Position numbers and translations under genes: made by a program | Assembly: GCA_018378775.1 (NCBI GenBank) | Contig: JAGZWV010000003.1 | Coordinates: 26,898 to 90,897, forward strand | DNA: 64,000 nucleotides | Reading direction: 5' to 3' | Source: Collinsella sp. | GTDB lineage: Bacteria > Actinomycetota > Coriobacteriia > Coriobacteriales > Coriobacteriaceae | Shown here: piece by piece, positions 4,248 to 59,169 of the stretch | Layout of the letters: every line of letters begins with the position of its first letter | Position numbering within the stretch: position 1 is the stretch's first letter | Notes under the pieces: model-generated | Databases searched by the model: none | What the model was told of the DNA's origin: nothing | Seen by the model: the letters and a program-made list of their open reading frames with translations, nothing else

Positions 4248-6436
4248 TCGATATGCCTGATCACGTCGCAGAGGAGCAGGGCAATCGTGTGGCGTGGATG
4301 TGGCCGCTTATCGCCCTGCTGGGGATAGCACTTTCTGTTGCAGCCGGCATGGCAAGTTATGGTTACACGACCGTTCAGGCCGAGCAGCGCTTTTCCGACG
4401 TTGTCGACTACGTGGCAACGCAGAGCCTCTCCTACGATGCGTTCAACAGCGCCTATGCGACCAAAAATCTAATCCGCGTAATGGAGATTGCCGGCGAGGT
4501 GGCGCGCGATATGGAGCGCGACGGCTCAGCGGATGGTGTCACGCTGGAGCAATATACTGACCAGTTTAACGTGAGCGCGCTCATCGTGATGGACGCGTCG
4601 GGCAACCTGGTGGCAGAGGCTTCGACGGATGATGTGAACTACGAGTCACTCGCAACGTATCTCAAAGAAGCGCCCGTGCTGGAAGTGGCGAGCTATCCGC
4701 TCAAGTCCTATAGCGCTCGCATCACGCTTGCGGATGATTCGGTCGCGGACATTGGTTGCGTCGCCCGTCAGGATGGCGACGGTATCGTTGTCGCGGTGAG
4801 GCACCAGAGCGCTAAAGCGGTTGCGAGCAATACGCTCAAGCTGCAGAGCTTGCTCGATGGCTACGAGACCATCGACAGCGGCGATATCGTGATCGAAAAC
4901 GACGGCAAGGTTGTTGCGACCAATGCCGTCGAGCCCACCGTGTTGGGCGTGTTTGAATTGCCTGCGACGGATGCCCTCATTGTTGACGGAATTAAGGAAC
5001 GCTGCCTGGCCGGCGAGGTTCGACTGGTCAATGTCGACGGCGAGTGGTTTTTGGGCTCGTATGGTAAAGCGCGAAAGTTTTACGTGTATACCTATGCGCC
5101 GGCACAGCGCTACTTCGAGACTGTCGCCGCCGTTGTTGCCTGCGTGCTGGTGCTCTACGGCGGTGCCGTAACCGCTGTTGTGCTGATTCGTCGCCGCGCC
5201 GACCGCCGGCGCTTGACGGATCTGCTGCAGCAGGAGCGCGACTACGGCGACAAGCTGGCAAAGGCAGCGCGTGAGGCCTCGTCCGCTAACTCCGCAAAGA
5301 CGGAGTTTTTGCGTCGCATGAGCCATGACCTGCGCACGCCCATCAACGGCATTCGCGGCATGGTCGAGGTGGGCGACGCCAATGCGGGCGATCTGCAAAA
5401 GCAGACCGAGTGTCGCTCAAAGATTTGGACGGCATCGGGGCTACTGCTCGACCTTGCCAATGAGGCGCTCGACATGAGTCGCCTGGAGAGCGGTCAGGTC
5501 GACCTGGAGCTCGTGCCCACAAACTTGGTGACCCTCAACCGCGAGGTGCAAGACATCCTGGAGCGTCAGGCAGATGAGCGTTTGGTAACCATCATCTGCG
5601 ACCAGCAGGCCCTGGACCATCCCTATGCCCGAGTAAGTGTGACGCATCTTAAGCGTTTGCTGGTCAATATCGCCGGCAATGCCGTTAAGTACAACCGACA
5701 AGGCGGTTACGTTCGCCTGGTGTGCCGCGAGGTGGAGCCGGTGGACGGCGTCCCCGTCTATGAATACACGATTGCCGATAACGGCATCGGCATGAGCGAG
5801 GAGTTCCAGCAGCACCTCTACGAGCCGTTTAGCCGTGAGGAGCAGCAGGTGGAAGGCGCTTCGTCGGGAACCGGCCTGGGTGCCTCCATTGCGAAACAGC
5901 TGGTCGAGCTTATGGGCGGAACCATGAGCTTTACGAGCACCTTGGGACAGGGGACGACCTTTACCATTCGCCTGCCGCTTAAGAAGTGCAAGCGCTCCGA
6001 GATTCCCCAGGCCGTTCGCGTGGATGCGGGCGATGACGATGCGCTCCAAGGCCTGCACGTCTTGCTGGTCGAGGATAACGACCTGAATGCTGAGATCGCG
6101 CAGTTTACGCTCGATCGTGCCGGTGCCATCGTGACGCATGCCAAGGATGGTGAGACTGCCGTCGAGACGTTTGCCACGAGCGCGCCGTATGAGTACGACG
6201 TGGTGCTCATGGATATCATGATGCCCGGCATCGATGGCCTCGAGGCCACGCGCCAGATCCGAGTGCTCAATCGCGAGGACGCCGCGACCACGCCAATCAT
6301 CGCCGTGAGCGCCAATGCCTTTGCGGACGATCGCAAGCTCTCGCGCGAGGCGGGCATGAACGCGCACCTGAGTAAACCCGTGAGTTCACAGGAGCTTGTT
6401 GAGGCCCTTGCCCACATCGCCGCCGACGCATCGTAA
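4244..6436 (+). CDS. hybrid sensor histidine kinase/response regulator (2 TM + periplasmic sensor, HisKA, HATPase_c, C-terminal REC)
   Basis: H-box AKTEFLRRMSHDLRTPINGIRGM; G-boxes DNGIGM / GTGLGASI; receiver LHVLLVEDNDLNAEIAQ...VVLMDIMMPGIDG...IIAVSANAF. Translationally coupled to the upstream SBP. Confidence 0.85.
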   Translation: MIDMPDHVAEEQGNRVAWMWPLIALLGIALSVAAGMASYGYTTVQAEQRFSDVVDYVATQSLSYDAFNSAYATKNLIRVMEIAGEVARDMERDGSADGVTLEQYTDQFNVSALIVMDASGNLVAEASTDDVNYESLATYLKEAPVLEVASYPLKSYSARITLADDSVADIGCVARQDGDGIVVAVRHQSAKAVASNTLKLQSLLDGYETIDSGDIVIENDGKVVATNAVEPTVLGVFELPATDALIVDGIKERCLAGEVRLVNVDGEWFLGSYGKARKFYVYTYAPAQRYFETVAAVVACVLVLYGGAVTAVVLIRRRADRRRLTDLLQQERDYGDKLAKAAREASSANSAKTEFLRRMSHDLRTPINGIRGMVEVGDANAGDLQKQTECRSKIWTASGLLLDLANEALDMSRLESGQVDLELVPTNLVTLNREVQDILERQADERLVTIICDQQALDHPYARVSVTHLKRLLVNIAGNAVKYNRQGGYVRLVCREVEPVDGVPVYEYTIADNGIGMSEEFQQHLYEPFSREEQQVEGASSGTGLGASIAKQLVELMGGTMSFTSTLGQGTTFTIRLPLKKCKRSEIPQAVRVDAGDDDALQGLHVLLVEDNDLNAEIAQFTLDRAGAIVTHAKDGETAVETFATSAPYEYDVVLMDIMMPGIDGLEATRQIRVLNREDAATTPIIAVSANAFADDRKLSREAGMNAHLSKPVSSQELVEALAHIAADAS

Positions 6437-6438
6437 AG

Positions 6439-6480
6439 ATACGCCCCGGTCCCAACGTCGGTTGGGACCGGGGCGTATTG
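6439..6480. terminator. bidirectional rho-independent terminator hairpin between convergent genes
   Basis: ACGCCCCGGTCCCAACGTCGGTTGGGACCGGGGCGT perfect 14-bp stem directly after the kinase stop, flanked by A/T runs. Confidence 0.7.
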
Positions 6481-6506
6481 CTATTTGCAAGAGCCTGCTT
6501 CGGGGT

Positions 6507-6986
6507 TTACTTTTCGTGAATCTGCTTGCCGCAGAGATGCTCAATCGTAATTTCGTACAGCTGAACGCCCTTGATGTCCTTGGCGATTTCTTCCTCGACC
6601 TCTTCGGCGGTGGGGTAGTACTTGAGCGCGAGCTCACGGACCTTGTCCTCGATAAATGCGGGGGTGTCATTCGCTAGGCGGCAACGGCCAAAGACAACGG
6701 TGCTCTGCACGTAGGGAGCCCAGTCGTCATCCTTGTACCAGTCGTTGCCGTAAACGGTAAAGCAGACCTTGTCATCGCGCTTGAGTGCGTCGACCTTGTG
6801 GCCAGCCTTGGCGCCATGGAAATAAATCTTGTCGCGCTCGGCGTCAAAGAAGTAGTTGACGGGGATGGCGTACGGGTAGCCATCGTCGCCGTTGACGGCA
6901 AAGACGCCGCGCTTGCAGGTGGCGAGCAGTTTGCGCGCTTCCTCGTCGGTGATGGCGCGTTTCTTTCGACGTAAGGGCCTAAACAT
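6507..6986 (-). CDS. pyridoxamine 5'-phosphate oxidase family FMN-binding protein (split-barrel)
   Basis: 159 aa. GVFAVNGDDGYPYAIPVNYFFDAERDKIYFHGAKAGHKVDAL pattern typical of PNPOx-like/general stress protein 26 family. Confidence 0.65.
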   Translation of the reverse strand: MFRPLRRKKRAITDEEARKLLATCKRGVFAVNGDDGYPYAIPVNYFFDAERDKIYFHGAKAGHKVDALKRDDKVCFTVYGNDWYKDDDWAPYVQSTVVFGRCRLANDTPAFIEDKVRELALKYYPTAEEVEEEIAKDIKGVQLYEITIEHLCGKQIHEK

Positions 6987-7026
6987 CGTTGGCTTCCTTT
7001 CTGGTCGTGCGTGGTTGCTGCAAAAA

Positions 7027-9837
7027 CTATAGCGAAACGGATCCGTTTTTCTTGATGCGGGCGAGTATGTTTTTGAGCTTGTTAAAGTCGAGCGGTTTGG
7101 ACAGATGGGCGTTCATGCCGGCATCGTGTGCCGCCTTGGCGTCCTCGGCAAAGGCATTGGCGGTGAGCGCGATGATGGGGATATCGGCTGCATCGACCTT
7201 CTCGCTCAGACGAATCGTGCGGGTTGCCTCATAGCCGTCCATGCCCGGCATCATAATGTCCATCAGGATCGCATCGAAGCTGCCGGCGGGATGCGACAGG
7301 TACAGATCGACGACCTCGTTGCCGTTGGCGGCGCGGGTGACCACGACGCCCTCGGATTCTAGCAGCGTCTGGGCAATTTCGGCATTCAATTCGTTGTCTT
7401 CGGCGAGCAGCACGTTCATGTCGGCGAGCGAGCAGTCGGGCGCACTCTCAACCGTATTCGCCCGCGCCTGGGGATTCTCGTCGATATCGAGCGGAATCTC
7501 CACGTAGAACGAGGTGCCCACATGGAGTTCACTGGTGACTTCGATGGTGCCGCCCATCAGTTCAATAAGCGACTTGACGATTGGCATGCCCATGCCGGTT
7601 CCTTGGAACTTGCTGCGCGCATCGTCACCTTCTTGGGCAAACGGCTCATAGATATGCTTTAAAAACTTGGGAGTCATGCCAATGCCGGTATCCGAAACGC
7701 TAAAGCAAAAGAGCGCGCGCCCGTTATCGAGTGGCTTGGTCTTTGAACTAAAGGTGACGGAGCCGCCGTGCTTGTTGTACTTAATGCTGTTGTCTAACAG
7801 GTTGATCATGATCTGTCGGATATGGGTGGGACTGCCGATCATGTATGGCCCCGTGGCGTACGGCAGACTATTGTCCTGCATGGTGATGCCGTTACTGGAC
7901 GCGCGGAGCTTGCACAGCACCAGTGTATCGTCACAGAGCTCTTTGAGGTTAAAAGGCGTATGCTCCAGTGTTAGCTTGCGGTCTTCGATTTTGCCCATCT
8001 CGAGGATGTTGTTGATCAGCGAGAGCAGGTGATTGGCGGCAACGCGCGCCTTGGCACGGCTCTCGCGGGCGACCTGGATATCGCCTTCCTTCAATTCCTC
8101 GATCTCGATAAGGCCCAGGATACCGTTGAGCGGCGTACGGATGTCGTGGCTCATACGCGTGAGGAATGCCGTCTTAGCGGCGTTGGCAGCATCGGCTTTT
8201 TTGCGCTCGGTTCGAGCGCGCACGAGTGCCCAGATGAGCAGGACGATGCCGACCGACAACATACCGATGAGGGTAGCGGCAATGGCGGTGCGGTTGCGAA
8301 AAAGGAATTGAAGCGTGTCTGATTCCTGGGTCGTGTACGACGTGGATGAGTAATTGCTTGCGGAGAGCGATTCTCCGGCATTGATGATGCCCTTGTTGAT
8401 GATTCCCAGCAGCTCGGGCTTTCCGCGCGAAATCCAGCACGAGAGCTCACAGGTGTCAGGGAGCTCGACCGTCTCGTAGTCCTTGAGATCATGACGGTCG
8501 CCGATGGTTTTTAAGCGTGAGCTGGGAGCGACGATGCAGTGCGCCGTTCCCTTTCTGAGGGCGTCGAACGCTTCATCGTCGGATTGGTATTCGGTCACGG
8601 TCGCTGTGGGGAACAGGCTTTCAAGTGCATTTTTGTTGACAAACGATGATTTGGTACAGGCGATGTTCTGAAGGTCTTTGTTCAGGTCGCTGCCGGTGTG
8701 GATGGCGGTGAGGGATATGGTCCCCAACGATACCGACTGCACAACGCCTGATTGCTCGGCAAACCAGTAATCTCGGTATACCGGCAGCACAACGTCTATG
8801 CTTCCCTTTGACAGGGCCTTTGACATCATCTTGTAGCTATCAAAGGCGACGGTTTTGACCGTAATGCCAAATTTATCGTGCAACGTCGTCGCAAGCGATG
8901 CGAGCGAGCCTTCCATTTCGCCGTTTTCGTCTTCGTTGCAGTAGGGGAGTCTGCCCGTAATGTAGCCGAGCGTGATGGTGTTGTCATTTGTTTTGAGCCA
9001 GGAACGTTCGGGGCCGTTGAGCGATGATGAACCGCTGTTTTGGGCCGAGTAGTTAGATTTGACTTCGTCGATATAGCGTGGGTTGACGCGGGCGATTGCC
9101 GACATGGCGGCATTGATGTCGTCCATCAGGTCGGGGCGGCTTTTGGGGACGGCAAAAAAGTAGTCGCTCGAACCAATGTAGAACATGGGGGAGGCGCTGG
9201 GCGACGAGGTCGTGTCGTTCATGATGATGGCATCGACCTCGTTGTTTGCGAGCGCGTCAAAGAGGGCACCGCCAGTGTCGATTTCTTTATAGGTGCAGGT
9301 AATGCCTTCGTTGGCGAGCCACTGCTGGCCAACGAAGGTTTGCATAACGTCGGGGTTGCAGCCGATGGTAAGGCCTTGGAGCGCTCGGGGGTCGCCCTTG
9401 GCCAGATCGTCGCGATCGGGCTTGGCGTAGATGTAGTAGCGCTCGGTGCCCTCGGGGTTCGAGGAAAAGAGCAGCTTTTGGGCGCGTTCCTCGGAGTAGG
9501 AGATGTTAGGCATAAGGTCGATTTCGCCTGCCTCGAGCATGTCCATAAGCTCGGTGAAGGTGCCGGAGACGTATTCGTACCGCCAGTCGGGCGTGTAGTA
9601 CGACAGGGTCTGGAGGTACTCGTAACCCCATCCCGAGAGACGCTCGCCGGGGGTGCCGTCCTGGAAGCCCTCGTTGTTGACGAGCCAGCCGACGCGGACC
9701 GTTTTGACCTGCTGATCGGAGTCGGCGGCAAAGGCAGGGGCGGGCGCGACGGCGCTCAGTACGGCGAGCGCGGTAAGCGCGGCGGCCAGGGTGCGACATA
9801 TAACTGAACGAAGGACAGTGGCAGCTCTCACATGCAA
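7027..9837 (-). CDS. hybrid sensor histidine kinase with two fused periplasmic SBP (family 3) domains, TM, HisKA-HATPase_c and C-terminal REC (BvgS/EvgS-like architecture)
   Basis: 936 aa. Signal peptide; two SBP-like repeats; H-box AKTAFLTRMSHDIRTPLNGILG; GTGMGMPIV; REC MNVLLAEDNELNAEIAQ...ILMDIMMPGMDG. Confidence 0.85.
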   Translation of the reverse strand: MHVRAATVLRSVICRTLAAALTALAVLSAVAPAPAFAADSDQQVKTVRVGWLVNNEGFQDGTPGERLSGWGYEYLQTLSYYTPDWRYEYVSGTFTELMDMLEAGEIDLMPNISYSEERAQKLLFSSNPEGTERYYIYAKPDRDDLAKGDPRALQGLTIGCNPDVMQTFVGQQWLANEGITCTYKEIDTGGALFDALANNEVDAIIMNDTTSSPSASPMFYIGSSDYFFAVPKSRPDLMDDINAAMSAIARVNPRYIDEVKSNYSAQNSGSSSLNGPERSWLKTNDNTITLGYITGRLPYCNEDENGEMEGSLASLATTLHDKFGITVKTVAFDSYKMMSKALSKGSIDVVLPVYRDYWFAEQSGVVQSVSLGTISLTAIHTGSDLNKDLQNIACTKSSFVNKNALESLFPTATVTEYQSDDEAFDALRKGTAHCIVAPSSRLKTIGDRHDLKDYETVELPDTCELSCWISRGKPELLGIINKGIINAGESLSASNYSSTSYTTQESDTLQFLFRNRTAIAATLIGMLSVGIVLLIWALVRARTERKKADAANAAKTAFLTRMSHDIRTPLNGILGLIEIEELKEGDIQVARESRAKARVAANHLLSLINNILEMGKIEDRKLTLEHTPFNLKELCDDTLVLCKLRASSNGITMQDNSLPYATGPYMIGSPTHIRQIMINLLDNSIKYNKHGGSVTFSSKTKPLDNGRALFCFSVSDTGIGMTPKFLKHIYEPFAQEGDDARSKFQGTGMGMPIVKSLIELMGGTIEVTSELHVGTSFYVEIPLDIDENPQARANTVESAPDCSLADMNVLLAEDNELNAEIAQTLLESEGVVVTRAANGNEVVDLYLSHPAGSFDAILMDIMMPGMDGYEATRTIRLSEKVDAADIPIIALTANAFAEDAKAAHDAGMNAHLSKPLDFNKLKNILARIKKNGSVSL

Positions 9838-45358: not shown

Positions 45359-46255
45359 ATGAAGCTTCAGCAGCTCAGATATGTTGTTAAGGTTGCCGAA
45401 TGCGGTAGCATCACCGAGGCCTCGCGCCGGCTCTTTGTGTCGCAGCCCTCGATTACCGCGTCGATTCGCGATCTCGAAAACGAGATGGGTGTGCATATCT
45501 TTGAGCGCACCAACAAGGGCGTCATTGTGTCCGAGGAAGGCGAGACCTTCTTGGGCTACGCGCGCCAGGTGCTCGACCAGGCCGACCTGCTCGAGGGCAA
45601 GTACAAAGGCACGTCCGAGCAGGTGCCGCACTTTAGTGTGAGCTGCCAGCATTATTCCTTTGCCGTTAATGCGTTTGTCGATGTGATCCGCGAGTTCGAT
45701 GCCGCGCGCTACGACTTTACCCTGCGCGAGGAGCAGACCCACGAAATTATCGAGGATGTCGCGCATATGAAAAGCGAACTCGGCATCCTGTATCTGTCGG
45801 AGCACAATCGCGAGGTCATCGAGCGCATGCTTGCCGCCAACGAGCTCGTGTTCGAAGGGCTCTTCTGCGCCACGCCGCATGTCTTCGTCTGCGCCGACCA
45901 TCCGCTGGCGGGCCGCTCCAGCGTGACGCTCGAGGATCTGGAAGACTACCCGTTCCTGTCCTACGAGCAGGGCAGCTACAACTCGTTTTACTATTCCGAG
46001 GAGCTGACCTCGACGTTCGAGCGTCGCAAAAATATCCGCGTGCGCGATCGTGCGACGTTGTTCAATTTGGCCATGGGCCTCAACGGCTACACGGTATGCT
46101 CGGGCGTGATCAGCCACGAGCTCAACGGCCCCGGCATTATCTCGATTCCGCTCGACGTGGACGAGTACATGGAGATTGGCATCATCACGCGCAAGAACAC
46201 GACGCTCACGCGCTACGGTCGGGCCTATATCGACGCGATTCGTCAGCATATCTAG
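45359..46255 (+). CDS. LysR-family transcriptional regulator
   Basis: MKLQQLRYVVKVAECGSITEASRRLFVSQPSITASIRDLENEMG canonical LysR HTH. Confidence 0.8.
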   Translation: MKLQQLRYVVKVAECGSITEASRRLFVSQPSITASIRDLENEMGVHIFERTNKGVIVSEEGETFLGYARQVLDQADLLEGKYKGTSEQVPHFSVSCQHYSFAVNAFVDVIREFDAARYDFTLREEQTHEIIEDVAHMKSELGILYLSEHNREVIERMLAANELVFEGLFCATPHVFVCADHPLAGRSSVTLEDLEDYPFLSYEQGSYNSFYYSEELTSTFERRKNIRVRDRATLFNLAMGLNGYTVCSGVISHELNGPGIISIPLDVDEYMEIGIITRKNTTLTRYGRAYIDAIRQHI

Positions 46256-55538: not shown

Positions 55539-56450
55539 TTAAGCACGTGCTGTCTGGGCGATGCCAGCCTTGGCATTTGCGCGTTTGCCGGCGAGTTCGC
55601 AAAAAATTGCGCCGCCGATGATAAGTGCGGCTCCCATTAGGCGGATTGGTGTTATGGCTTCGCCTAAAAGGACGGCGGAGAATACAACGGCCGAAAGCGG
55701 CTCGAGGTAGCCGACAACCGCGACGGTCTGGACGGGCAGCTTGGCGACGGCACTAAAGTAGAGCAGGCAACCGATGCCAGTGTTGACGACGCCGAGCATG
55801 GCGACGGCGCGCCAATCAATACCGGCGGCGACGCCGGCGGACAGGAATAAGGGAGCGCCCTGCGTGATGAGCGTAAGGACCAGCGCGGTCACAAAGGCGG
55901 CGCTCACCTGGAGCGTGGAGTTCTCGAGGCCTTCGATGTGTGGCGCACCCTTGCTAGCGATGACCATCAGCGCATAGCAAAATGCCGAGGCGATGCCGCA
56001 GGCGATACCCGCAATGGGCATATTGCCGCCTAGACCTTGTGCTGCAATGAGAAAAGCACCGCAAGCAACGGCGATAAAGCCGGCGATTTTGCCACCGGTC
56101 AGCTTTTCGCCAAAAATGAGCGGGGAAAGGGCCATAACGATGATGGGGCCGCAGTAATACAGCAGCGAGGATACGCCGACGCCGATCGTCTGGTAGGCGC
56201 GGAACAGAAAAATCCAGCTGGCGCCCAGCGCGGCTCCCGAGAGGAGGAGGGCTGCGGCTTCGCGGGGGCGAGATGGCGCCTGCAACTTATGGCGTTGCGT
56301 AGTGACGAGGATGACAACGAGTGAGAGCGCACCCAAAAACGTGCGCAGGAGCACGATGTCGGAGCTCGGCAGCGCGATGGTGGCGGCGATGATGCCGTTG
56401 GAGCCAAACAATAGCAATGCTGCTAAGTACGTAAACAGTCCGTTGTTCAT
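55539..56450 (-). CDS. EamA/DMT-superfamily transporter
   Basis: 303 aa, 10 TM; divergent from a LysR gene. Confidence 0.75.
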   Translation of the reverse strand: MNNGLFTYLAALLLFGSNGIIAATIALPSSDIVLLRTFLGALSLVVILVTTQRHKLQAPSRPREAAALLLSGAALGASWIFLFRAYQTIGVGVSSLLYYCGPIIVMALSPLIFGEKLTGGKIAGFIAVACGAFLIAAQGLGGNMPIAGIACGIASAFCYALMVIASKGAPHIEGLENSTLQVSAAFVTALVLTLITQGAPLFLSAGVAAGIDWRAVAMLGVVNTGIGCLLYFSAVAKLPVQTVAVVGYLEPLSAVVFSAVLLGEAITPIRLMGAALIIGGAIFCELAGKRANAKAGIAQTARA

Positions 56451-56589
56451 GCGCTGACATCCCCTCTATATCCGAGCATGTTCACTATGGGTGAACTGGC
56501 TTTAGAAGAAAAGCGAATATAATGCATGGATAACATGACAAAGACTCATGCAAAGGTGGAGGGGTGCCGTGGAAACGAATATTCAAAAG

Positions 56590-57426
56590 ATGCAGGTGCT
56601 GCTCGAGACCGTGCGTGCCGGCAGTTTTACGCGCGCCGCCGAGCGCCTGAGCTATTCGCAGTCGGGCGTGAGCCGTATGGTGGCCGATCTCGAGGCCGAC
56701 TGGGGCTTTAAAGTGCTCGATAGAAGCCGCGAGGGCGTAGTGCTTTCTGCCGATGGGCGGCAAATTATGCCGGCGGTCGAGGCGTTATGCGAGGAATTTG
56801 TTCGTTTGCAGCGACGGGTGGATGAGATGCGTGGGCTCATGCGCGGCAAAATCTGCATCGGTACGTTTTCGAGTGTGGCGACCCACGTGCTGCCGCCGGT
56901 GATTGCGCGCTTTCGTGCCGATTACCCGGATGTCGATTACGAGCTACTGATGGGCGATTACTCGGAGATTGAGCAATGGGCGGCGGAAGGGCGCTGCGAC
57001 CTGGGCTTTATCCCGCGTGAGCCACGAGAAAACGGCATGGCATCGCGGTCTTTGGTGCGTGATGAGCTGATGGCGGTGGTGCCAGCAGATTCGTTGCTTG
57101 CCGCGGCGGAGGTCGTCTCTCTTGTCGATTTGGCAAACGAGCAGTTTATTCTGCTGGAACGAGGTACCGATGACGAGATTACGCCGCTGTTCCGTCAGGC
57201 GGGGCTGACGGCGCGCTCCAAGCTGTTGACCTGGGATGACTATGCGATTATGGCTATGGTCGAGGACGGCCTGGGCGTGAGCATTCTTCCGGCGCTCATC
57301 TTGCGTCGCTGCCAGTTCGATGTTGCCGTGCGTCCGCTCGAAGGGCATCCCCATCGGCAGATCAACGCCATATATCGAACGGCCGATGTTTCGCTTGCCG
57401 CCGCTCGATTCCTTGAATACCTCTAA
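56590..57426 (+). CDS. LysR-family transcriptional regulator
   Basis: MQVLLETVRAGSFTRAAERLSYSQSGVSRMVADLEA LysR HTH; in-frame alternative starts GTG 56569 (SD ggtggagg) / ATG 56548. Confidence 0.8.
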   Translation: MQVLLETVRAGSFTRAAERLSYSQSGVSRMVADLEADWGFKVLDRSREGVVLSADGRQIMPAVEALCEEFVRLQRRVDEMRGLMRGKICIGTFSSVATHVLPPVIARFRADYPDVDYELLMGDYSEIEQWAAEGRCDLGFIPREPRENGMASRSLVRDELMAVVPADSLLAAAEVVSLVDLANEQFILLERGTDDEITPLFRQAGLTARSKLLTWDDYAIMAMVEDGLGVSILPALILRRCQFDVAVRPLEGHPHRQINAIYRTADVSLAAARFLEYL

Positions 57427-57486
57427 ATGAGCGCACACCGTTGTCGCTTTGGGATAAATCTCGAGGTTTGGCTCATTTTATTTTTG

Positions 57487-57570
57487 AAATTGAACTTTCA
57501 AATGAGGTGCCGCGCTATACTGCTTGCTAAATTGAACTTCGGTTCAATTCGTGTTCTATAAATTGAACTT
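57487..57570. promoter_or_regulatory. three direct AAATTGAACTT repeats, middle one embedded in perfect palindrome AATTGAACTTCGGTTCAATT (putative operator)
   Basis: Copies at 57487, 57529, 57560 in an AT-rich stretch immediately upstream of the HTH-aminotransferase start. Confidence 0.5.
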
Positions 57571-57589
57571 TGCCAGCAAGGAGGTTCTA

Positions 57590-59110
57590 GTGGCCCAAGA
57601 GACGTTTAGCGATCGCCTGCGACAGGCTATGTCCGATCGCGACGTTCGACAGTCGGACGTGATTCGTGCATCGGAGATGCTCGGCAAAAAACTCGGCAAG
57701 AGTCAGATGAGCCAATATGTGAGCGGCAAGACGATCCCGCGGCGCGATGTGGCAGAGCTGCTCGCCCGTATTTTGGAGGTCGATGTTACCTGGCTGCTCG
57801 CCGGTGACGCCGATCAAGGCGAGACATCATCGCCCCGCAACGATTCCAAGCCCGAACACCATCCCTCAGCTCAAATTGCAAGGAGCACCACCATGCGTAC
57901 TTTTTCTAAATCCACCAAGCTCGATAACGTCCTGTATGACGTGCGCGGTCCCGTCGTCGACGAGGCCGCCCGTATGGAGGACGAGGGCGAGCGCATCCTC
58001 AAGCTCAATATCGGCAACCCGGCGCCCTTCGGTTTCCGCACGCCCGATGAGGTCATCAAGGACATGCGCCAGCAGCTGCCCGACTGCGAAGGCTATTCCA
58101 ACTCGCGTGGCCTGTTCTCCGCGCGCAAGGCGATCATGCAGTATTCGCAGATCAAGGGCTTGCCCAACGTTCAGATGGAGCATATCTACACAGGCAACGG
58201 CGTATCCGAGCTCATTCAGCTTTCGATGAACGCGCTGCTCGACAACGGCGACGAGATTCTGATCCCCAGCCCCGACTATCCGCTCTGGACGGCGTGCGCA
58301 ACCCTTGCCGGCGGTCATCCCGTGCACTATCTGTGCGATGAGCAGGCGGATTGGTATCCCGACCTGGAGGATATGGAGTCCAAGATCACGAGCGCGACCA
58401 AAGCCCTCGTCATCATCAACCCCAACAACCCCACGGGTTCCGTCTATCCGCGCGAGGTGCTCGAGGGCATCGTCGAGGTTGCACGCAGGCATCAGCTGAT
58501 GATCTTTGCCGATGAGATCTACGACCGCCTGTGCATGGACGGTTACGAGCACGTCTCGATTGCCTCGCTCGCTCCTGATCTGCCCTGCGTCACCTTTAGC
58601 GGCCTTTCCAAGTCGCACATGATCGCGGGCTATCGTATTGGCTGGATGGTGCTTTCGGGCAACCAGCGCTGCATGAGCGACTTCATCATGGGCATTAACA
58701 TGCTCTCCAACATGCGCCTGTGCTCCAACGTGCCGGCTCAGTCGATCGTTCAGACGGCACTCGGTGGTCATCAGTCCGTTAACGACTACATCCGTCCCGG
58801 CGGCCGCGTCTACGAGCAGCGCAACTTTGTGTATGAGGCGCTCAACAAGATTGACGGCATCTCGGTGGTTAAGCCGCGCGCGGCGTTCTACATCTTCCCC
58901 AAGATGGATGTGAAGAAGTTCAACATCACCGATGACGAGCAGTTCGCCCTTGACCTGCTGCACGAGAAGAAGATCCTGATCACGCGCGGCGGCGGCTTTA
59001 ACTGGGCTGAGCCCGACCACTTCCGTATCGTGTACCTGCCGCGCATGGAAGTGCTCAAAGAGTCCCTCGAAGACCTCGCCGACTTCTTTGACCATTACCG
59101 CCAGGCGTAA
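57590..59110 (+). CDS. XRE-type HTH domain fused in frame to AlaA-like alanine aminotransferase (class I/II PLP aminotransferase); aminotransferase part also has its own SD+ATG at 57893
   Basis: GTG 57590 with SD aaggagg; HTH LRQAMSDRDVRQSDVIRASEMLGKKLGKSQMSQYVSGKTIPRRDVAELLARIL; low-complexity linker; then aaggag-N7-ATG MRTFSKSTKLDNVLYDVRGPVV...NIGNPAPFGF...SGLSKSHMIAGYRIGW (PLP Lys), 405 aa = AlaA length. No stop between the two parts. Confidence 0.6.
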   Translation: MAQETFSDRLRQAMSDRDVRQSDVIRASEMLGKKLGKSQMSQYVSGKTIPRRDVAELLARILEVDVTWLLAGDADQGETSSPRNDSKPEHHPSAQIARSTTMRTFSKSTKLDNVLYDVRGPVVDEAARMEDEGERILKLNIGNPAPFGFRTPDEVIKDMRQQLPDCEGYSNSRGLFSARKAIMQYSQIKGLPNVQMEHIYTGNGVSELIQLSMNALLDNGDEILIPSPDYPLWTACATLAGGHPVHYLCDEQADWYPDLEDMESKITSATKALVIINPNNPTGSVYPREVLEGIVEVARRHQLMIFADEIYDRLCMDGYEHVSIASLAPDLPCVTFSGLSKSHMIAGYRIGWMVLSGNQRCMSDFIMGINMLSNMRLCSNVPAQSIVQTALGGHQSVNDYIRPGGRVYEQRNFVYEALNKIDGISVVKPRAAFYIFPKMDVKKFNITDDEQFALDLLHEKKILITRGGGFNWAEPDHFRIVYLPRMEVLKESLEDLADFFDHYRQA

Positions 59111-59131
59111 CGGCAAAGGTAGCCTGTAATG

Positions 59132-59169
59132 AAACGGTCGGCCCGCAACGGATGCGGGCCGACCGTTTT
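59132..59169 (+). terminator. rho-independent terminator
   Basis: AAACGGTCGGCCCGCAACGGATGCGGGCCGACCGTTTT after the aminotransferase stop. Confidence 0.8.

Follow-up and report, generated by a model that had tools for sequence, protein, structure and literature searches.

Why does the gene for a housekeeping-type aminotransferase in Collinsella begin with a DNA-binding domain like that of a phage repressor, and does the protein it encodes control its own synthesis? The question is raised by a gene at positions 57590–59110 (plus strand) of a 64,000-nucleotide stretch of Collinsella sp. DNA (contig JAGZWV010000003.1, positions 26,898 to 90,897; this whole stretch is called the window, and its own numbering is used below). 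In it, an XRE (Cro/C1-type) helix-turn-helix (HTH) domain runs in frame through a linker into an AlaA-like aminotransferase. Taken together, the comparative data suggest that the gene probably encodes an autorepressing fusion of enzyme and regulator that is made in two forms, and that works much as the MocR/GabR proteins do without being a member of that family.

The long coding sequence starts with GTG and specifies 506 amino acids (aa) plus a stop. Its frame is open from 57551 to the TAA at 59108–59110 with no stop in between, in keeping with the original prediction, which had also placed the start at 57590 behind a Shine-Dalgarno (SD) sequence. That SD, AAGGAGG at 57578–57584 (plus strand), has a predicted anti-SD duplex energy of −11.9 kcal/mol. 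We take GTG 57590 to be the real start because the SD is strong and because orthologous proteins begin at the equivalent position, with MAQETF... as their N-termini. Homologues, Pfam matches, and structure prediction with AlphaFold2 (AF2) divide the product into an XRE/Cro-C1-type HTH domain (residues 1–72; 57590–57805), a disordered linker (residues 73–101; 57806–57892) with a predicted local distance difference test (pLDDT) score below 45, and a nested AlaA-type aminotransferase of 405 aa starting at Met102 (57893–59110), all on the plus strand. An internal SD-like AAGGAG at 57880–57885 (plus strand; −7.5 kcal/mol) is followed after 7 nt by the ATG at 57893, exactly as had been described.

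Orthologous loci were collected by eight look-ups and one metagenome scan, which gave 35 clusters with GC contents of 0.43–0.68; a scan of a genome collection returned only near-identical Collinsella loci, good for fine footprinting and not for diversity. An in-frame fusion is present in every evaluable cluster (34 lineages). Orthologues with a stop codon between a small HTH gene and alaA had been named in advance as the finding that would expose the fusion as an error or a recent pseudo-fusion, and all 34 lineages are fused. The linker itself varies from 20 to 108 aa (median 43), consists to 54% of Ala, Ser, Thr, and Pro, and is essentially unalignable across these lineages. Its reading frame is without a stop in 34/34 lineages, compared to 21/34 and 7/34 for the other two frames, which is direct evidence of selection for read-through.

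The exact window protein occurs on 30 contigs in public assemblies (two loci are 100% identical by tblastn), which places the window in the Collinsella aerofaciens group, and one 90% cluster of the fusion protein holds 14,636 sequences. The best 120 homologues of the window protein are ~500–546 aa long, bar four outliers of 430–610 aa, and belong to Collinsella and Enorma (Coriobacteriaceae) and to Olsenella and Thermophilibacter (Atopobiaceae, a placement confirmed for Thermophilibacter). The best 120 homologues of a divergent metagenome member, at 500–560 aa, include Eggerthellaceae, Gordonibacter, and Arabiibacter, which we take to belong to Eggerthellales, the other order of Coriobacteriia. 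On this sampling of sequences, the fusion appears to span the class Coriobacteriia. An XRE-type HTH joined to an aminotransferase had been thought unusual; within Coriobacteriia, at least, it is not rare but is the standard form of the enzyme, as the 14,636-member cluster illustrates. Public annotation names the enzyme only (“aminotransferase class I/II-fold PLP-dependent enzyme,” where PLP is pyridoxal 5'-phosphate). Four proteins with partial query cover are markedly longer (P0001, 610 aa; P0120, 599 aa; P0072, 574 aa; P0378, 565 aa); the excess could reflect N-terminal extensions, mis-called starts, or chimeric assemblies.

The type of the DNA-binding domain is well defined. Scanned alone, the N-terminal 76 residues match HTH_31 with 28.8 bits (cut-off 27) and HTH_3 with 25.5 bits (cut-off 23), scores that slip just under the cut-offs when the full-length protein is scanned. 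HTH_3 is matched by 17/17 orthologue HTHs, and the fusion protein has no Pfam match to the GntR winged helix (PF00392), so its earlier assignment to the XRE and not the GntR type stands. In the AF2 model, residues 1–72 (pLDDT 78–95) form helices at 6–16, 21–30, 37–45, 52–62, and 66–70, a five-helix fold with helices 2–3 as the HTH, and profile comparison gives matches to solved domains of the CI and 434 repressors. The best relative in the PDB is the N-terminal domain of TP901-1 CI (E = 1.4e-14, 38% identity). The probable recognition helix, KSQMSQYVSG (residues 37–46), follows a family pattern, KSQ[VLM]SQYVSG, that is invariant; its counterpart in TP901-1 CI is KSTLSQYVNS. Searches with the HTH alone (a word index; 1.84 billion representatives) did not define the breadth of the family. 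Most of the matches were small XRE proteins at ~50% identity and pieces of the same fusion from contig ends; several of these matches carry aminotransferase remnants by Pfam, and two were confirmed as fragments.

The C-terminal moiety is, judging from its conserved residues, a catalytically intact AlaA-type alanine aminotransferase. Pfam Aminotran_1_2 is matched at residues 136–485 (E = 1.8e-54), and among solved structures the closest is that of E. coli AlaA (4cvq), which aligns over query residues 101–505 with E = 1.2e-165 and 56% identity, Met102 falling on its Met1. Among 20 orthologues, N277, N280, D308, Y311, S340, K341, R349, and R479 are invariant. This set includes the Asn of NPNNPTG, the Asp and Tyr of DEIY, the Schiff-base Lys341, the phosphate-binding Arg349, and the carboxylate-binding Arg479; Lys341, the PLP lysine (codon 58610–58612), lies in the motif SKSHMIAGYRIGW (residues 340–352) that the original prediction had singled out. 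Domain content and catalytic motifs thus place the protein among AlaA-type class I aminotransferases. The best NCBIfam match, alanine aminotransferase PRK08363, scores 342 bits, below its equivalog cut-off of 534; this model is not an AlaA-specific equivalog, and the substrate assignment is accordingly based on similarity to the E. coli enzyme (56% identity). CDD has a provisional entry, PRK13355 (“bifunctional HTH-domain containing protein/aminotransferase”), so that the architecture has probably been noticed by curators; this entry is not among the best 25 NCBIfam matches, and the literature searched does not mention it. The AF2 run used a 20-sequence alignment, and the enzyme domain was modeled poorly (mean pLDDT 53) because this alignment is shallow; we therefore draw no inference from it about contacts between HTH and enzyme.

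If the HTH is a working DNA-binding domain, its likeliest target lies directly in front of its own gene. Three direct repeats had been noted there, with the middle one inside a perfect palindrome. All three are present (AAATTGAACTT[TC], beginning at 57487, 57529, and 57560), and a fourth, inverted box with its core GTTCAATT at 57542–57549 brings the number to four. Box 1 (AAATTGAACTT, 57487–57497, plus strand; position weight matrix [PWM] score 21.7) overlaps the −35 region of the probable promoter, whose −10-like hexamer, TATACT, occupies 57516–57521 (plus strand). Box 2 (AAATTGAACTT, 57529–57539, plus strand; 21.4) lies 7 nt 3' of the −10, over the probable transcription start, and is followed by the inverted box 3 (57540–57550, minus strand, where it reads GAATTGAACCG; 13.5). 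Box 4 (AAATTGAACTT, 57560–57570, plus strand; 22.1) is just 5' of the SD. The palindrome is perfect in its 8-nt arms; the 4-nt spacer that they enclose is not itself palindromic. This spacer between boxes 2 and 3 differs among Collinsella strains (CTTC, CCTT, CTCA, CCAT, or CCCT), which indicates that the conserved unit is the box and not the palindrome. From base composition, ATTGAAC/GTTCAAT is expected ~3.8 times per 64 kb; the window contains seven copies, of which four lie within 80 nt upstream of the gene.

The boxes are conserved along with the gene. In 80 near-identical Collinsella loci, the four boxes and TATACT are invariant, whereas drift is seen from box 1 to TATACT and in the spacer that separates box 2 from box 3. 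Across the wider set, the box consensus is AAATTGAACT; 2–6 boxes are found 5' of the fusion gene in 35/35 clusters, and almost none elsewhere in the 5–7.5 kb fetched, with neighbors among the distant orthologues as unrelated as uvrA/nth, ligT, an ABC transporter, an MFS transporter, and an aldehyde dehydrogenase. In the usual layout, the −35/spacer region contains a box and is followed, in the 3' direction, by a −10-like hexamer, a box ~7–9 nt farther on, one or two more boxes, and the SD; most orthologues have a box immediately in front of the SD. As the hexamer between boxes 1 and 2, loci L081–L088 carry TATACT, TAGACT, TACTCT, TAGAGT, or CATACT, often after TGn. Distances from box to start are mostly ~60–170 nt and reach ~310 nt in L108, L153, L159, and L168. 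The repeats thus behave, as far as sequence comparison can tell, like a conserved operator array linked to the fusion gene across lineages, much as had been proposed.

Orientation and spacing of the boxes give a further clue to how they may be read. Adjacent pairs occur in all arrangements (−+, 43; +−, 28; ++, 24; −−, 13), and the central inverted pair (box 2 to box 3) is spaced anywhere from 10 to ~31 nt in orthologues. Distances between adjacent boxes peak at 11, 18–21, 30–32, 42, and 52 nt. They fit a period of 10.5 bp at near-zero phase, with a resultant R of 0.59 (n = 101); since the lineages are related, this periodicity does not translate into an exact probability.

One clade departs from the usual layout. 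In the seven Eggerthellaceae-like loci of the L153/L156 clade, the operator/promoter cluster is found ~190–290 nt 5' of the start (in L156, at 2207–2310 against a start at 2498), which implies a long leader without an SD-proximal box. L156 (OGYO01001750.1) also has two direct boxes (GAAATTGAACCAAAAATTGAACC) at 1798–1820, apart from the operator cluster of the fusion gene. They are ~55 nt 5' of a TATAAT and ~260 nt 5' of a tRNA-Val(tac) gene (2079–2153), and the regulator may have a second target here.

For the HTH, the closest solved homologue allows binding sites to be compared directly. The OR half-site of TP901-1 is AGTTCACG (PMC7250872), and the reverse complement of the window box is AGTTCAATT; the two have the core AGTTCA in common. 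A homologous N-terminal domain thus goes together with AGTTCA-type half-sites in both systems, and from this we infer, at the level of sequence, that the fused HTH binds the upstream boxes. Binding would most likely repress the gene's own promoter. The boxes lie over the −35 region, over the transcription start, and 5' of the SD, positions that make negative autoregulation the likely outcome.

The internal start is where the argument turns from regulation to the number of products. Of 33 clusters with a readable junction, 32 have an ATG there or no more than five codons away. A GGAG-like run precedes it by 5–9 nt, even though the residues encoded there differ (RS, GS, GG, RE, or KG). Where the residue at the SD position is Arg, its codon is AGG in 19/19 lineages (17 R-S clusters, the window, and L086 with R-E), in contrast to 6 of 295 Arg codons (2%) elsewhere in nine orthologous genes. 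Gly at this position is always encoded by GGG or GGA, vs. 18% elsewhere. Elsewhere in the linkers, sites of comparable SD strength are rare (~3% of equivalent zones), and few parts of the gene are less structured than the 50 nt around the ATG (median 7th percentile, 29 lineages). Conservation of the internal SD and ATG that had been pointed out in the window thus goes beyond what the amino acids demand, and on these nucleotide patterns we think that the internal start is probably used, yielding a free 405-aa enzyme.

These elements can be assembled into a mechanism. Class I aminotransferases are obligate homodimers, so the enzyme moiety can supply the dimerization that CI repressors obtain from their own C-terminal domain; the aminotransferase dimer would take the place of that domain as the oligomerization module. 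Each dimer would carry two HTH heads whose long flexible tethers let them reach boxes (AAATTGAACT) that are separated by one to four helical turns, whatever their orientation. With the boxes over the −35/spacer, at the transcription start, and near the SD occupied, RNA polymerase would be excluded. Translation from the internal ribosome-binding site (57880) and ATG (57893) would meanwhile give the free 405-aa enzyme, which lacks the DNA-binding head, and mixed dimers of long and short forms, with a single head, would have lower avidity for the operator array. A more tentative extension, which we consider possible but rather doubtful, is a self-measuring circuit in which long and short forms from one mRNA assemble into dimers with two, one, or no heads. 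If it exists, operator occupancy would report the total enzyme level and the ratio of the two starts, and possibly also the substrate or the PLP/PMP (pyridoxamine 5'-phosphate) state of the active site. The MocR design would then have been reinvented independently, with a non-GntR head and with a sensor domain that still works as an enzyme, and transcription in dominant gut Actinomycetota would be tied directly to the balance of alanine, pyruvate, and glutamate.

A number of observations weigh against an autorepressing fusion with two products, or against parts of it. Since neither the box nor the recognition helix varies, the HTH cannot be linked to the box by covariation. The −10 and the transcription start are placed from conservation only, as a scan for the sigma-70 consensus gave no promoter at the locus; TATACT went unflagged because no canonical −35 is found at 16–18 nt from it. 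When the 64-kb window was scanned for a second box target by PWM and 7-mer, only isolated single boxes at chance level were found: three of the seven 7-mer copies are scattered singles, and the copy at 46060 is inside an open reading frame (ORF). Within the literature library searched, no paper turned up on this protein or on an XRE-aminotransferase fusion. Allosteric coupling of the active site to the HTH received no support from the models, in which the linker is predicted to be disordered and the enzyme is poor. Turning to the internal start, predicted anti-SD pairing is stronger at other SD-like sites inside the gene, and the junction SDs of L108 and L167 are weak. L168, a low-GC lineage, keeps the fusion and the upstream boxes, but its junction (...STTQTREFKKS, ~125 codons in) has neither a Met nor an SD-like run. 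The internal start has apparently been lost there, which makes it dispensable in at least one lineage. Finally, an ancestral, unfused alaA could have passed on its start ATG together with the low RNA structure there, and part of the low structure does come from Lys-rich codons inherited from AlaA.

The alternatives draw on these same observations. We give next to no credence to the idea that the fusion arose as an artefact of sequencing or assembly, or that it is a pseudo-fusion by which a small HTH gene was only recently joined to alaA. Some gene callers do report a 405-aa product (P0313), and one metagenomic locus, L162 (VOFG01004805.1, 2501–4040), has a stop after the HTH. Its aminotransferase, however, is broken into at least three frames; frameshifts run all along the gene, which marks a poor assembly, and L162 was discarded as a natural split gene. 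Against an artefact there are also the identical or near-identical 506-aa proteins on many independent contigs, the cluster of 14,636, and the in-frame fusion of all other lineages from two orders of Coriobacteriia in spite of their unalignable linkers. A different possibility, which we regard as unlikely, is that the boxes are real cis-elements of another regulator, or promoter or UP-like elements, and that the HTH acts elsewhere or otherwise. TTGAAC does resemble a −35 hexamer, and the invariance of box and helix leaves such a regulator without a covariation argument against it. Even so, the boxes accompany the fusion gene in at least 35 lineages whose neighboring genes are unrelated, and, unlike −35 or UP elements, they are found 3' of the −10 and in either orientation; in addition, AGTTCA is the core of the operator half-site of the closest solved homologue, whose recognition helix is near-identical.

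Less probable still is that the inverted repeats act as RNA, with alternative hairpins in the 5' untranslated region (box 2 with box 3 vs. box 3 with box 4) that control translation or mRNA stability. Boxes 2 and 3 could pair as an 8-bp hairpin at the predicted 5' end of the transcript, and box 4 adjoins the SD. The predicted leader fold is no better than that of shuffled sequences, however (z = −0.74), and an E-value scan of 57300–58000 gave no Rfam match. It is the sequence of the boxes that is conserved and not their pairing; one box is always 5' of the −10, many lineages have direct arrangements, and the spacing tracks the DNA helical repeat. Sequence conservation, mixed orientation, helical phasing, and a box 5' of the −10 together point to a protein on one face of the DNA and not to an RNA structure. 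The alternative that we take most seriously leaves the fusion and its autoregulation intact, and sees in the internal SD and ATG no more than a relic of where the ancestral alaA began, with only the 506-aa protein made. It is a possible reading, if not the one we favor: the junction Met aligns with Met1 of E. coli AlaA, L168 lacks both elements, the SDs of L108 and L167 are weak, and stronger SD-like sites exist elsewhere in the gene. A relic would be expected to decay where linkers can no longer be aligned, yet the purine run is kept by rare codons across differing amino acids, as the AGG and GGG/GGA counts show, and the site remains unusually unstructured. For these reasons we continue to prefer an internal start that is in use, within an autorepressing fusion.

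Directly after the stop codon of the fusion gene, the segment 59111–59185 folds with −39.8 kcal/mol (z = −5.0), and within it a GC-rich hairpin of 17 bp followed by UUUUCU (59131–59169, plus strand) is a probable intrinsic terminator; it surfaced by folding, a scan for the terminator consensus having given no match. The fusion gene looks monocistronic. Immediately 5' of it, on the same strand, is a gene for a LysR-type regulator (56548–57426, plus strand), from which a gene for an EamA-family transporter (55539–56450, minus strand) diverges. The LysR/EamA pair is common only to the closest relatives (L085) and is probably an independent regulator-transporter unit outside the control of alaA. 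An antisense ORF of 416 aa (57866–59116, minus strand) spans the whole aminotransferase coding region; high GC and codon bias most likely explain it.

Fusions of enzymes to DNA-binding domains show how genes can be regulated by metabolism without a separate sensor. What is new here is a MocR-analogous regulator-enzyme fusion built on a phage-CI-like HTH, with its operator array, phasing, and nested start now defined. It is also a tractable case: the gene is monocistronic, a sharply defined 10-nt box is repeated four times across a 100-nt promoter, the HTH has a close homologue with a solved protein-DNA complex, and the enzyme has a solved homologue. The fusion is, moreover, the standard alanine aminotransferase of an entire class of abundant human gut bacteria (Collinsella, Olsenella, and Eggerthellaceae). 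Should two products and autoregulation be confirmed, the gene would be a second, independent example of MocR logic with a domain that is still catalytic, a natural case of nested translation that sets the stoichiometry of regulator to enzyme, and a compact repressor/operator pair for the genetics of Actinomycetota. Annotation should record both the HTH and the internal start.

Among known systems, the nearest to the enzyme is E. coli AlaA (4cvq), with full-length similarity, the same PLP-Lys motif, and a start that aligns with Met102. E. coli AlaA is a glutamate-pyruvate aminotransferase without a DNA-binding domain, controlled in trans by Lrp. In the alaR-alaT operon of B. subtilis, a regulator gene is genetically coupled to that of an alanine aminotransferase; AlaR, however, is a separate protein of the Lrp/AsnC type and not a fused XRE domain. 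Having enzyme and DNA-binding domain in one polypeptide, the fusion protein resembles the trigger enzymes, a concept reportedly due to Commichau and Stulke. PutA, BirA, and NadR, in which an active enzyme and a DNA-binding domain regulate their own pathway or gene, differ from it in both the DNA-binding folds and the enzymes. To our knowledge, none of the three has been described with a conserved nested start for the enzyme minus its DNA-binding domain.

TP901-1 CI (PDB 3zhm, 5a7l, and 6tri) is the closest solved homologue of the HTH, with a very similar recognition helix and a linker to an oligomerization module. It too has a flexible linker and binds several operators cooperatively (PMC4941734). 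The resemblance ends at the linker, after which TP901-1 CI has a C-terminal helical domain for dimerization/hexamerization, and the fusion protein a metabolic enzyme in its place. The fusion gene sits in a chromosomal housekeeping context without a MOR-type antirepressor or a prophage nearby, unlike TP901-1. There is no divergent small repressor gene at the window locus, where the upstream neighbor is the same-strand LysR-type gene, and the spacing of the boxes is variable, in contrast to the fixed palindrome of TP901-1.

The closest parallel in design is with MocR, GabR, and PdxR, in which, as in the fusion protein, an N-terminal DNA-binding domain is joined by a long flexible linker to a dimerizing fold-type-I aminotransferase. 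In characterized MocR proteins the aminotransferase domain serves as a sensor of PLP or effector; in the fusion protein it is a close orthologue of the housekeeping AlaA (56%) and has retained an internal start. Operators of MocR proteins have two to four boxes that may be direct, inverted, or both and that are whole helical turns apart, and the proteins are usually autoregulated (PMC5320631). The boxes in front of the fusion gene are likewise multiple, helically phased, and next to their own gene, a resemblance in working and not in membership: MocR proteins have a GntR winged helix, and the fusion protein, with a five-helix XRE/Cro-C1 HTH in its place, is not one of them. The two designs coexist in L085, a related, Collinsella-like contig, where pdxT/pdxS (SNO, SOR_SNZ) and a divergent, canonical MocR-type gene (GntR plus Aminotran_1_2; probably PdxR) are found at 5742–7542, 1.2–3 kb 3' of the fusion gene. 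The likeness of the fusion protein to MocR is one of convergent, not homologous, design.

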